Of a stretch of DNA of 38,197 nt, positions 1,086 through 37,779 are shown piece by piece. The position numbers and the translations under genes were made by a program. Source of the DNA: Candidatus Microgenomates bacterium (GTDB lineage Bacteria > Patescibacteriota > JACPGU01); assembly GCA_016188915.1 (NCBI GenBank), contig JACPGU010000004.1, positions 1 to 38,197 of the forward strand, given 5' to 3'. Positions within the stretch are counted from its first letter, which is position 1; each line of letters starts with the position of its first letter. The notes beneath the pieces were generated by a model. That model did not search any database. It saw nothing but the letters and a program-made list of their open reading frames with translations, and was not told where the DNA came from.

Positions 1086-1138
1086 GGGAGGGGAGTGAAA
1101 TAGAATATGAAACCATATGCTTACAAGATATAGGAGCC

Positions 1139-1316
1139 GCCGTACCTCACTGTGTTCGGTACGGAATGTCTAATATCTAATTGACCTAATTTCTAATAAA
1201 ATACCCAATAAATAACTTCCCAATAATTAAGTTTTGGGTTTTGTGATTTGGAATTTGTTTAGAAATTAGAACTTAGAAATTAGAAATTTCGTCCGCCGAG
1301 CATAGCGAGGTGCGAC
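1139..1316 (+). other. Intervening sequence in 23S helix 25 (E. coli ~550 site)
   Basis: ~175 nt between GGAGCC and GGTGACTG where a short hairpin is normal; outer stem CGTACCTCACTGTGTTCGG / CCGAGCATAGCGAGGTGCG (G-U wobbles) encloses an AT-rich CTAATT/TTAGAAA repeat hairpin. Confidence 0.85.
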
Positions 1317-1815
1317 GGTGACTGTGTTCCTATTGATGAATGCGCCAACGAGTTAGCTAGGCGTGGCAAGGTTAAGCCTTTAAAGGCGGAGCCGTAGTGA
1401 AAGCGAGCATTAAAATGCGAATAGTCGCGTCTACTAGACCCGAAACCAGGTGATCTACCCATGGTCAGGATGAACCCCACCGAAAGGTGTGGAGGAGGTC
1501 CGAACCCATTAGTGTTGCAAAACTACGGGATGAACTGTGGGTCGCAGAGAAATTCTAATCGAACCTGGTGATAGCTGGTTCTCTTCGAAATATATTTAGG
1601 TATAGCTCCCAACTTATAATCAGGAGGGGTAGAGCACTGGATGGGCATTTGTTCCTTCGGGGACAATGTCCAAACAAACTCCGAATACTTCTGACAGTGT
1701 TGGGAAGTCAGACTGTGGGGGCTAAGCTCCATAGTCGAGAGGGAAAGAACCCAGACCGCAATCTAAGGTCCCTAAACATGTCTAAGTGGAAAAGGAAGTG
1801 AGATTACTTAAACAA

Positions 1816-1846
<31 letters not shown>

Positions 1847-1932
1847 TAAAGAAAGCGTAACAGCTCACTGGTCAAGTGATTTTGCGCCGACAATTCAACG
1901 GGGCTAAGGCATGTACCGAAGATGCGGATGTC

Positions 1933-2041
1933 AGTGCGGAGCACTGACACACGAATTGCACAAATCTTTGAACGAATCTCACGAATTTATTCGTGGTATT
2001 AGTTTTTTGTTCGTGTGATTAGTGTGCCAATGCTCTGCATC
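1933..2041 (+). other. Intervening sequence in 23S helix 45 (E. coli ~1170 site)
   Basis: ~105 nt between GCGGATGTC and GACATGGTAG; stem GTGCGGAGCA / TGCTCTGCAT encloses CACGAAT/ATTCGTG repeats. Confidence 0.85.
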
Positions 2042-3461
2042 GACATGGTAGAAGAGCGTTCTTGATGCGCTGAAGCTGACGCGTGAGCGTTGGTGGAGCG
2101 TCAAGAAGTGAGAATGTTGGCATGAGTAGCGATAACTCCGGTGAAAAACCGGGGCGCCGTAAAACCAAGGTTTCCTGGACCACGGTAATCGTTCCAGGGT
2201 TAGTCGGTCCTAAGCCAAACCCGAAAGGGGCAGGCGATGGACAACAGGTTAATATTCCTGTACTGTCGTAGTATCGCCCAAATACTGTCCTTTGCAAGAT
2301 AAGATTTATCTTTTCGCGCATTGGGTGGTCAGCAATGGGGTGACGCATTTTTGAGCTTGGAGCATCTTTTGGCTATTGGTGTTTAAGCGTATTTGGTGGT
2401 TTGATAGGAAAATCCGCAAACAAATCCAGGTGCGCGAGTAAGACCCGCCGATGAGGCGGGGATTCCAGGGGAAAAGGTGACAAGAAAAACCTCTAGCGAG
2501 ATACTATGATAACCGTACCGTAAACCGACTCAGGTGGTTGAGGAGAGTATCCTCAGGCGTTTGGAAGAACCTTCGTTAAGGAACTCGGCAAAAAAGCGTG
2601 CGTAAGTTAGCGATAAGCACTGTCCCCCATCACTTTGCAAACATAATTTTGTGAAAACTAATGTTATAGCAACAAGAATACATTGGTTAATTTACTGATT
2701 ATGTTATCAAAGTGATGGGGGATCGCAGCGAAAGAGCCCAGCCAACTGTTTAGCAAAAACACAGGTCCCTGCTAACTCTTAAAGAGGATGTATAGGGGCT
2801 GACGCCTGCCCAATGCCAGAAGGTCACGGAAGGGGGTTAGCGTGCTTTGCACGCAAAGCTTCTAACCTAAGCCCTGGTGAATGGCGGCCCTAACTATAAG
2901 GGTCCTAAGGTAGCGAAATTCCTTGTCTGGTAAGTTCAGACCCGCACGAAAGGCGTAATGATCTGGGCGCTGTCTCAACGAAGGATCCAGCGAAATTACA
3001 ATAACGGTAAAGATGCCGTTTACTCACAGCAAGACGGAAAGACCCCATGAAGCTTTACTATAGCCTGACATTGAATTAAGATTTTGTCATGCGTAGCATA
3101 GGTGGGAGACTTTGAAGTTCCGCTTTTGGGCGGGACAGAGTCGTTAGTGAAATACCACCCTTATAAGATTTTGATTCTAACCGGTCGAAAGACTGAGACA
3201 GTGTTTGGTGGGTAGTTTGACTGGGGCGGTGGCCTCCTAAAATGTAACGGAGGCGTTCAAAGGTCAACTAGCTCCGGATGGAAATCGGAGCGATAGCGCA
3301 AAAGCAAAAGTTGGCTTGACTGCGAGACGAACATGTCGAGCAGGGCGGAAACGCGGATTTAGTGATCCTTCGATGCAACGTGGGTTGCTCGAAGCTCAAC
3401 GGATAAAAGTTACTCTGGGGATAACAGGCTGATCCTATCCAAGAGTCCACATCGACGATAG

Positions 3462-3566: not shown

Positions 3567-4294
3567 AAATAACATTGCGTTGTGTATCGGGAAACTGATA
3601 TACTAGTATTGACTTATATCGGTGAAGCCCTACTCTCTTTTACCAAACTAGAGAGAGGGTAATACCGAGGGAAGATTTAAGATTATGCCAAAAAGTAATG
3701 ATGCCTATATTGCTGGTTTTCTTGATGGCGATGGATCCATAATGGCTCAAATCATCAAGAAAAATGATTATCGATTTGGATTTCAAATCCGAACGAGTAT
3801 TGTTTTCTACCAAAAACAAGGCAAGGAAAGTTTTATGAATTGGTTGAAGAATCAATTACATTATGGATATATTCGCAAAAGAAAAGACGGAATGACAGAG
3901 TATGCCATAGTCGGTTTCAAGGAAGTTGAAGAGATTCTGAAAAGATTTCACTCGCATCTGATTCTCAAAAAAGAATTAGCGAGTCTAGTCCTAAAAATAG
4001 TTCAAATGCCAAAGAAACCAACAGTAAAACAATTTCTTGCAAACTGCGAAATGGTAGATAGATCAGCGATGTTTAATTATTCCAAAAAACGAAAGATAAG
4101 AACGCAACAGGTGAAAGAATACTTGGCAAAAAATAATCTTATTTCCCCGTAACGACTCATAATTATTCGGCAAAAATAATTATGGATGGTTTATTCAAGA
4201 AATCTTGGAATTCCATAACACGTCAACCCCTCCTCCGAGGCGTCGGAAAGGGTGAAGATATAGTCTGCGCCATTAGTAATAATGGAATAACGTG
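3567..4294 (+). mobile_element. Group I intron (728 nt) at 23S position equivalent to E. coli 2593
   Basis: Splits the conserved GAACGT|CGTGAGACAG; 5' exon ends in U with P1 AACGU/GCGUU; terminal G at 4294; P3 TTGAC (3609) / GTCAA (4222); R CGTAACGACT (4148-4157); S AAGATATAGTC (4255-4265). Confidence 0.95.
3685..4152 (+). CDS. Single-motif LAGLIDADG homing endonuclease, I-CreI-like
   Basis: YIAGFLDGDGSIMAQI motif and C-terminal FLANCEMVDRSAMFNYSKKRK match the recalled I-CreI pattern (YLAGFVDGDGSIIAQI; FLEVCTWVDQIAALNDSKTRK); stop codon overlaps the intron R element. Confidence 0.93.
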   Translation: MPKSNDAYIAGFLDGDGSIMAQIIKKNDYRFGFQIRTSIVFYQKQGKESFMNWLKNQLHYGYIRKRKDGMTEYAIVGFKEVEEILKRFHSHLILKKELASLVLKIVQMPKKPTVKQFLANCEMVDRSAMFNYSKKRKIRTQQVKEYLAKNNLISP

Positions 4295-4653: not shown

Positions 4654-4760
4654 TCTCGTGATTTTCAGCAGCAGGGCTACACCCGTTCCCATTCCGAACA
4701 CGGCAGTTAAGCCTGCTAGCACCGATGATAGCCTTTGGGCAAAAGTAGGTGATCGCGAGA
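4654..4760 (+). rRNA. rrf: 5S rRNA (short, ~107 nt)
   Basis: CCCGTTCCCATTCCGAACACGGCAGTTAAG core; terminal helix TCTCGTGAT / GATCGCGAGA; flanking stem TTTTTGAATACATG / CATGTATTCAAAAA. Confidence 0.95.
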
Positions 4761-4774
4761 ACCATGTATTCAAA

Positions 4775-30371: not shown

Positions 30372-30455
30372 GTACGAATTTTAGCTAATTAACACTAATT
30401 TCGCTAATTTGAAACTAATGGCACGAATTGGATTCAAATTAGCGCAATGAGCGCG
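30372..30455. repeat. Short-unit hairpin element, family 2
   Basis: Units ACGAATTTT/CACTAATTT/CGCTAATTT/CACGAATT; perfect IR CGCTAATTTGAA (30402-30413) / TTCAAATTAGCG (30433-30444). Confidence 0.65.
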
Positions 30456-37261: not shown

Positions 37262-37770
37262 AATTTCTAATTGACCTAATTGATCTAATTTCTAAGAAAA
37301 ATCACAAGCTTCAATTACAAAATATTTATGGCACAAAATCAAACAATACAAGAAAGCACCAAGAGAAATTATGATTTAGAAGAAAGGACAGCTAAATTTG
37401 GCGAAGATGTCATACGTTTCTGTAGGATAATCAGAGAAGATACTATTACTAGACCACTTATTCAGCAACTCATAAGGGCGGCCACTTCTGTTGGCGCAAA
37501 TTATTCTGAAGCTGACGATGCCGAATCGAAGAGAGACTTTAAGCACAAGATAGGTATTTGTAAGAAAGAATCAAGAGAGGCCAAACATTTTCTTCGGATG
37601 ATAGCCGTAGCTGTGTCAGAACACAAAGAACAGGCACTCATTCTCTGGCAAGAAGCCAAAGAGCTTAATCTTATATTTAATTCTATCAATAACAAACTTA
37701 AAGATTAAATTTGGATAATTGGGGCTTGATTATTTTTTAGGTCAATTAGAAATTAGGTCAATTAGAAATT
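37262..37770. mobile_element. Inverted-repeat-bounded cassette carrying the four-helix-bundle gene (family 1 element)
   Basis: Perfect 20-bp IR AATTTCTAATTGACCTAATT (37262-37281) / AATTAGGTCAATTAGAAATT (37751-37770), built of 7-9-nt CTAATT units; mobility is inferred. Confidence 0.7.
37328..37708 (+). CDS. Four-helix-bundle protein (23S rRNA intervening-sequence protein / TIGR02436-like family)
   Basis: YDLEERTAKF, QLIRAATSVGANYSEA, SKRDFKHKIGICKKESRE, EAKELNLIF. Confidence 0.92.
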   Translation: MAQNQTIQESTKRNYDLEERTAKFGEDVIRFCRIIREDTITRPLIQQLIRAATSVGANYSEADDAESKRDFKHKIGICKKESREAKHFLRMIAVAVSEHKEQALILWQEAKELNLIFNSINNKLKD

Positions 37771-37779
37771 TAAATACCT

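Follow-up and report, generated by a model that had tools for sequence, protein, structure and literature searches.

The window analysed here, a stretch of 38,197 nucleotides, covers the start (38 kb) of C2, one of the four contigs that make up the 769-kb genome, with 41% G+C, of an ultra-small bacterium. It carries a 23S rRNA gene starting at position 524 and a 5S gene at 4654-4761, both located with Rfam, the 16S gene being found on a different contig from the 23S gene. Ahead of the 23S gene stands a hairpin at 350-428, immediately preceded by a terminator-like hairpin with a T-run at 325-349 and, further upstream, by a promoter-like site, TTGACC-17-TAAAAT (10/12), at 188-216. The 23S gene itself is interrupted by a helix-25 insert at about 1150-1310, by a helix-45 insert at 1941-2038 and, from ~3567, by a stretch that contains a LAGLIDADG-type ORF (3685-4152). 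Two further non-intron insertions, one of 52 nt at ~2277-2328 (Rfam model position ~1457) and a hairpin of 76 nt at ~2636-2711 (model position ~1763), were without paralogues in an nhmmer search of the genome, which also encodes an RNase III (250 bits).

Compared with the bacterial 23S consensus, the gene has an insertion that the alignment of the Rfam LSU model locates at 1941-2038 of the forward strand, in the loop at the tip of helix 45 and between model positions ~1218 and 1219 (region ~1210-1220). This lies within 8 nt of the limits 1933-2041 at which the first-pass annotation had called a helix-45 insertion. In the same alignment, the flanks of the insert are conserved, with CCGAAG on one side and GGUAG..GAGCGUUC / GGUAGAAGAGCGUUC on the other, and the two strands of helix 45 that surround it are GAUGUCAG and AUCGACAU. 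The insert folds into a single hairpin of ~44 pairs with a 4-nt apical loop and a dG of -51.4 kcal/mol (z = -6.56); shuffled sequences gave -30.5 +/- 3.2 kcal/mol, and a fold as good was reached in 0 of 200 shuffles. No ORF of the ORF list falls within 1941-2038, and 1933-2041 matches no Rfam family except LSU rRNA and does not qualify as a group I or group II intron. Its place in the apical loop and its complementary ends, which form a long stem, are those of a helix-45 IVS.

The core of this hairpin, at 1948-2028 (forward strand, ~80 nt), is built as an array and is homologous to the copy that lies upstream of the gene. Each arm has four units of ~10 nt, which are of the CAC(G/A)AAT type in the 5' arm (CACGAAT at 1950, CACAAAT at 1959, AACGAAT at 1971 and CACGAAT at 1980) and imperfect complements of it in the 3' arm (ATTCGTG at 1989, ATTAGTT at 1998, GTTCGTG at 2010 and ATTAGTG at 2018). 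The CACGAAT motifs announced at 1950 and 1980 are thus present, as are their partners, ATTCGTG at 1989 and TTCGTGTG at 2010-2017. By repeat analysis, the 5' arm is a succession of two modules of 20 nt each, ACACGAATTGCACAAATCTT and GAACGAATCTCACGAATTTA. Below the core, the 5' scaffold GGATGTCAGTGC-GGA-GCACTGA (1926-1947, forward strand) and the 3' scaffold CCAATGCTCTGCATCGACAT (2027-2046, forward strand, pairing with 1928-1946) form a basal stem of ~17 pairs, which is common to two sister lineages. The segments GCACTGACAC (1941-1950) and GCATCGACAT (2037-2046) match at 7 of 10 positions, and both must pair with the same strand of helix 45.

The strands of the basal stem have a symmetry of their own. 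The 5' strand is a small palindrome, GTCAGTGC GGA GCACTGAC, at 1931-1949, and both strands (1931-1949 and 2027-2046) are individually palindromic, as they are at the loci L186, L008 and L014. The palindrome of L186 reads CCAATGC-TTT-GCATTGG and two other relatives, G028 and G014, are palindromic at both ends, the design recurring with differing sequences. The long duplex beats the local basal hairpins by 4-16 kcal/mol. A capping of the new rRNA ends and a target for a protein are both possibilities for these segments. As for the core, the fold energy of the insert is -44.8 on the transcribed strand against -43.3 on the other, while the upstream copy is more stable on the opposite strand. The asymmetry between strands (G-U versus A-C pairs) as a test for selection at the RNA level gave inconsistent results from one hairpin to another and was discarded; because the strand energies disagree, RNA-level selection on the core of the insert is unsupported.

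The sister copy of the core occupies 350-428 on the forward strand, 97-173 nt ahead of the point where the 23S gene begins, with units at 352, 361, 373 and 381, then at 390, 399 and 419; the unit offsets 0, 9, 21 and 30 are identical in the two elements. As previously annotated, the hairpin 351-427 has CACGAAT at 352, 361 and 381 with ATTAGTG/ATTTGTG partners, and it contains both 20-nt modules of the insert at 85% and 80% identity. When the 88-nt core of the insert was used as an nhmmer query against the 769-kb genome in which the insert had been masked, the sole non-self match was 350-425 (19.6 bits, E 6e-4), with an identity of 59/82 (72%). Dinucleotide shuffles of the query (n=40) gave at most 10.6 bits, and permutations of the order of its units (n=40) gave 9-14 bits, with a maximum of 14.2, the upstream hairpin still being matched by 32 of these 40. 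Since the true match beats all 80 controls, the shared units supplying most of the signal and their colinear order a significant rest, the two elements were accepted as paralogues; they would be copies of one duplicated DNA element, a relation that the comparison of their sequences shows in part. The sharing of CACGAAT is above the chance level, as the motif occurs 10 times in the window for 4.7 expected and this number was reached in 1 of 100 shuffles. Genome-wide, there are only three clusters of CACGAAT, two of them being the insert and the hairpin at 350-428. The upstream copy is bordered by no target-site duplication, and neither a transposase nor a filled/empty pair was found for the insert.

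The family that had been proposed comprised three dispersed copies, the third being the element at the mraZ-rsmH junction (30372-30455, forward strand). Two of these stand, namely the insert and 350-428; the third is unmatched by the insert (nhmmer E > 10) and reaches only E 0.05-0.1 with a profile built from the leader and the insert. It contains six phased units, of which one is CACGAAT, one ACGAAT and the other four of the xCTAAT type; its 3' arm is short and its hairpin is formed by its last ~50 nt only. It has the architecture of the insert, and its membership of the same sequence family is not demonstrable. The scan suggested earlier with a profile of the three copies was run; it returned its own members together with half-matches (E 6e-4 to 0.04) and did not recover the GxxExxY cassette of this genome. 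Weak half-matches of the insert itself lie at C1:63507, C3:52066 and C4:48500, beside the two full-length copies of the genome; a structured region beside C4:48504 belongs to no Rfam family. In 400 other CPR genomes no homologue of the insert was found, the matches obtained being short, with E values per genome of 1e-3 to 1e-2. With just two copies here and none in the 400 CPR genomes, the notion of a dispersed family is weak at the level of sequence.

The helix-25 IVS of the same gene (1137-1322, forward strand), which carries CTAAT/ATTAG arrays, has a full-length copy on the minus strand at C3:5890-6071 (182 nt, E 1e-34, 91% mean column identity). This copy lies in sense orientation in the 16S-tRNA spacer, where it begins 17 nt past the 3' end of 16S; weaker CTAAT relatives are found at the junctions of protein genes. 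The statement that both IVS sites hold dispersed repeats of two families is therefore right insofar as each insert has a paralogue, and too strict insofar as the CGAAT and CTAAT types are not cleanly separate, since the mraZ-rsmH hairpin combines both units, as does a hairpin from another CPR genome. The copy of the helix-25 insert lies in the 16S-tRNA spacer and that of the helix-45 insert before the 23S gene, so that each of the closest paralogues resides in a spacer of an rRNA operon. That this location is meaningful is suggestive, as a matter of two cases only, and for the helix-45 pair a local duplication over 1.6 kb could be a simple alternative.

Among 26 other CPR 23S genes sampled, a helix-45 insert of 100-160 nt is present in six or seven, none of which bears an ORF, and it is absent from a genome of the same family (G005). 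The arms of these inserts are arrays of their own units, such as AAATGCAAAAT and TTGGAAATTGGGATTTAAGA. In one relative whose genome is a single contig (G028), the helix-45 insert has matches, of up to 78% identity, at 8 or more dispersed loci, and these copies have a clear common core with unrelated flanks. In another (G014), the insert has two further sites within its own 3.1-kb 23S locus, and a genome-wide BLAST search yielded one more 23S-adjacent site and a few dispersed loci. These dispersed copies provide an independent confirmation, in another genome, of the idea of a repeat family.

An exact-pattern scan of metagenome contigs retrieved two sister lineages of the insert, G004/L191 and L186-L190. 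The 5' scaffold GGATGTCAGTGC-NNN-GCACTG is common to the insert and to both, the 3' scaffold CCAATGCTYTGCAT is shared only with L186-L190, and the 3' side of G004/L191 is loosely similar. The interior of L186-L190 consists of TTTTGAA/TCGAAT arrays over ~125 nt, that of G004/L191 of 110 nt without arrays. Thus a scaffold common to three lineages encloses interiors that are entirely different, which indicates a stable site whose interior undergoes replacement or rapid turnover. Five pairs vary among L186-L190, four of which still pair on the rRNA strand through one-sided G-U/A-U/G-C changes, the fifth being broken. A hairpin of similar units was met in another CPR genome, at G010:C78 (L038:296-400), where CACTAAT, CACGAAT, AACGAAT and CACCAAT face ATTAGTG/ATTCGTA partners; it stands at the end of an ABC-ATPase-like gene, which we take to be sufC-like, and belongs to no Rfam family. 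The fourth position of its units is free and the arms often mismatch there.

In the present genome, hairpins made of phased units are abundant. They were sought by unit-array scans, those based on the energy of long hairpins over the whole genome having been dropped when GC-rich coding sequence and ordinary MFE hairpins dominated them. Three or more CGAAT units form an array at 13 loci, where 20 shuffles averaged 0.65 (~20-fold); arrays of period 7-8 are present in 37 of 347 intergenic regions, and an array with an inverted partner within 1.5 kb at 42 loci against 0-3 in shuffles. Some of these pairs enclose a gene. Of the five PF05635 (four-helix-bundle) genes, four are enclosed by inverted arrays, each gene with its own unit; one such gene-bearing hairpin, with inverted CTAAT arrays, is in the window between ftsW and murG (37262-37772, forward strand), and encloses a four-helix-bundle ORF (PF05635/TIGR02436; 37328-37708) whose CTAAT units are like those of the helix-25 insert. 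The only GxxExxY gene of the genome, C4:90306-90704 (TIGR04256, 97.8 bits; PF13366, 96.3 bits), is enclosed by inverted TACGAAT arrays that form a perfect repeat of ~46 bp; the solo arms at C1:102458 and C2:100692 are very similar to the arm of this cassette. The first-pass annotation had stated that no such gene is in the window, which is exact for GxxExxY proper, located on C4, and overlooks the four-helix-bundle cassette at 37262-37772.

The insert has the architecture of these cassettes, with inverted phased arrays, the unit array on the 5' side and its complement on the 3' side, and that it belongs to the unit-array hairpins of the genome by architecture, type of unit and polarity is shown in part. 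Between the insert and the arms of the GxxExxY cassette, nhmmer detected no homology in either direction at E values up to 1-10, so that the cassette represents a like design and not a full-length version of the insert. The gene-containing version that had been anticipated does not occur in the genome, and the insert, with its loop of 4 nt, holds no PF13366 or PF05635 gene. The proposed tie to that gene family is consequently partly supported, at the level of architecture only.

Several arrays of this genome are embedded in genes or bracket them. Five CACGAAT units at C3:52056-52101 are read in frame as DTNDTNLHTNMTNGNRMNND within a TatD-family hydrolase gene (C3:51560-52480, minus strand; Pfam TatD_DNase, 235 bits), which has ~30 residues more than the profile; such an in-frame array shows that these arrays enter DNA as insertions. 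An AGATTT/AAATCT array hairpin at C1:46180-46290 apparently lies within the coding frame of a gene that we assume to be tgt-like, and separate ATGAATT and AGAATTT hairpins stand on either side of a gene, presumably rpsK (S11), at C1:107412-108069. At C4:130503-131201 there is a gene for a RAYT-like Y1 (HUH) transposase (PF01797, 27.5 bits; motif NHYHLIL), and the palindrome GCGAAGGTG(A/T)CACCTTCGC flanks it and interrupts it in frame (C4:130468-131213). This GC-rich palindrome has 10 occurrences in the genome and constitutes a separate REP-like family; the transposase, being tied to it, was rejected as the mobiliser of the insert.

Outside this genome, at least 120 contigs contain three consecutive CACGAAT units, for an estimated expectation of ~4; they are spread over many phyla, including Verrucomicrobiota, Bacteroidota, Planctomycetota, Chloroflexota and Acidobacteriota. 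In 80 loci studied, at least two ATTCGTG units lie downstream of the array in 51 and upstream in 4, a polarity that exceeds what the formation of a hairpin alone explains. The loops are mostly shorter than 150 nt and most such hairpins must therefore be gene-less; in the other phyla most of them stand between ordinary genes, and none of the 80 arrays lies within an rRNA gene. A PF13366 (GxxExxY) gene adjoins the array in 2 of the 80 loci. In a Verrucomicrobiota MAG (L118:3630-4090) it sits between two CACGAAT arms, and in a Chloroflexia MAG (L113:3045-3580) a complete empty CACGAAT hairpin stands on either side of it. The statement that such units often flank GxxExxY genes holds when one starts from the gene (this genome and the two MAGs) and fails when one starts from the arrays (2/80). 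Taken together, the original observation is real and partly confirmed, the family being one of two members within a class defined by architecture.

The reading that we favour, with a probability of roughly 0.6, is that 1941-2038 is an ORF-less helix-45 IVS, a duplicated array hairpin that is excised from the pre-23S rRNA and is a tolerated insertion. The insert would be transcribed within the pre-23S rRNA and, by analogy with the IVSs that have been studied, its ~44-pair duplex would be cut by RNase III without religation, the IVS RNA then being degraded. Were the helix-25 IVS removed as well, the 23S rRNA would consist of three pieces, of ~0.6, 0.6 and 1.8 kb, kept together in the 50S subunit. 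We infer excision and fragmentation because the helix-25 and helix-45 IVSs offer the precedent (PMC4990558; PMC11270868). The insert itself would be a selfish or neutral sequence that the gene tolerates, and not a functional part of the rRNA, and the gene-bearing forms of like hairpins are those that enclose the GxxExxY (PF13366) gene and the four PF05635 genes.

The hairpin may instead escape excision and extend helix 45 at the surface of the mature 23S rRNA, which we consider unlikely, if worth keeping in mind. The conservation of the basal scaffold in three lineages, its many G-U pairs and the maintenance of pairing by the variable pairs on the rRNA strand would all suit such an expansion segment, and nothing in the sequence proves cleavage. 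The completely different interiors of the sister lineages are a better fit to a discarded spacer, the RNase III gene is present, and rRNA transcripts were reported by Brown et al. 2015 to lack the CPR rRNA insertions. Moreover, the helix-45 inserts of such form that have been studied experimentally are all excised by RNase III (PMC4990558), which again argues for the excised IVS.

Might oriented unit-array hairpins be, more generally, a pan-bacterial class, of which the ORF-less IVSs are the copies residing in rRNA and whose gene-bearing forms encode the proteins (the GxxExxY nuclease and four-helix-bundle proteins) that recognise the units? This broader proposal is a tentative one, to which we would give long odds. 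If it is true, it would explain the origin of IVSs, the 51:4 polarity and the location of both IVS paralogues in rRNA operon spacers, and the palindromic basal segments might cap both new rRNA ends after excision.

More doubtful is the view that the insert is a non-autonomous mobile element on which a GxxExxY PD-(D/E)xK nuclease or a four-helix-bundle protein acts in trans, the ACGAAT-type units being putative binding or cleavage sites and gene-less hairpins being copied into transcribed DNA, that of rRNA genes among it, in a RAYT-REPIN-like manner. The GxxExxY gene with its xACGAAT arms, the 13 CGAAT arrays with their near-identical solo arms, and the in-frame CACGAAT array of tatD, which shows insertion into DNA, are what such an activity would produce; the polarity of 51 versus 4 in 80 loci of many phyla, the CACGAAT arms that flank GxxExxY genes in two other phyla, and the dispersed family to which the G028 insert belongs point the same way. 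Against this, the insert and the cassette arms are without homology, the units are genome-specific, neither a target duplication nor a filled/empty pair was found, such a gene is missing from the surroundings of 78 of the 80 CACGAAT-array loci, and the sole recognisable hairpin transposase, the RAYT-like one, belongs with a different palindrome. We know of no biochemical activity for the GxxExxY or four-helix-bundle families, which also counts against this view.

Very improbable, finally, is an origin in situ by local slippage and inverted duplication with a coincidental or compositional sharing of the 7-mer, for although the units vary from genome to genome, the similarity to the upstream copy is largely at the level of the units and tandem units are prone to slippage, the true query outscores 80 of 80 shuffled or permuted controls, the phasing of the units is identical in both copies, the helix-25 insert has its 182-nt copy on another contig (E 1e-34) and arrays are ~20-fold over expectation.

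The favoured reading, that of a duplicated array hairpin excised as an IVS, bears on a question that has been open since 1990, namely the origin of rRNA IVSs, whose 'functionality and origin' were still described as unclear by Warrier et al. 2016. Two IVSs of one 23S gene with paralogues outside it, the dispersed family of G028 and the architecture of the cassettes back the long-standing idea that IVSs are inserted copies of dispersed palindromes. The sequences are concrete enough for experiments on RNase III processing and on protein recognition, and annotators should expect such inserts in CPR 23S genes and mask them for phylogeny or probe design.

Among the known systems, the Correia/NEMIS elements of Neisseria, the Rickettsia palindromic elements and the REP/REPIN sequences with their RAYT are dispersed, palindromic and non-autonomous, and transcribed Correia hairpins are substrates of RNase III. 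The hairpins described here resemble the Correia/REPIN type as short hairpin repeats at gene junctions, sometimes in frame within genes, and the helix-45 insert of G028, with its copy number of at least 8, comes near to it; the insert of the present genome differs in that its arms are arrays of genome-specific 7-10-nt units, in having two copies and in that no cognate transposase was found. With the GxxExxY/four-helix-bundle cassettes it shares a design, as these have xxCGAAT/xCTAAT inverted arrays of the insert's polarity in transcribed junctions, whereas the insert has a 4-nt loop in place of a gene and imperfect arms in place of a perfect ~46-bp repeat. We found no printed account that links IVSs to these cassettes.

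Excision by RNase III is documented for helix-45 IVSs, of which the Coxiella one has tandem heptamers (GACAGAT) in its stem (PMC4990558). Our insert is like the classical IVSs of Salmonella, Campylobacter, Leptospira and Coxiella burnetii (PMC4990558, PMC2801512) in its site and its stem, in its sporadic occurrence among relatives, in being accompanied by a second IVS in helix 25 and in the presence of an encoded RNase III. It differs from them in the lack of an S23p/four-helix-bundle ORF, in a stem that is nearly all phased units and in a paralogue upstream of the gene, and its excision is a predicted one. Closer still are the inserts described by Tsurumaki et al. 2024 (PMC11270868), who found that short (< 200 nt), ORF-less, non-intron inserts are common at 23IS2/23IS4 of CPR 23S genes and regarded them as probable IVSs of the RNase III type: the bacterial group, both sites, the size class and the lack of ORFs are the same, and the text of that study describes neither a build of unit arrays nor paralogues outside the rRNA gene. 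In conclusion, ORF-less CPR inserts at both sites (PMC11270868) and tandem heptamers in the stem of an IVS (PMC4990558) were already known, and the present analysis adds to them the paralogues outside the mature rRNA, the scaffold with its swappable interior and the link with the unit-array hairpins and their gene cassettes.
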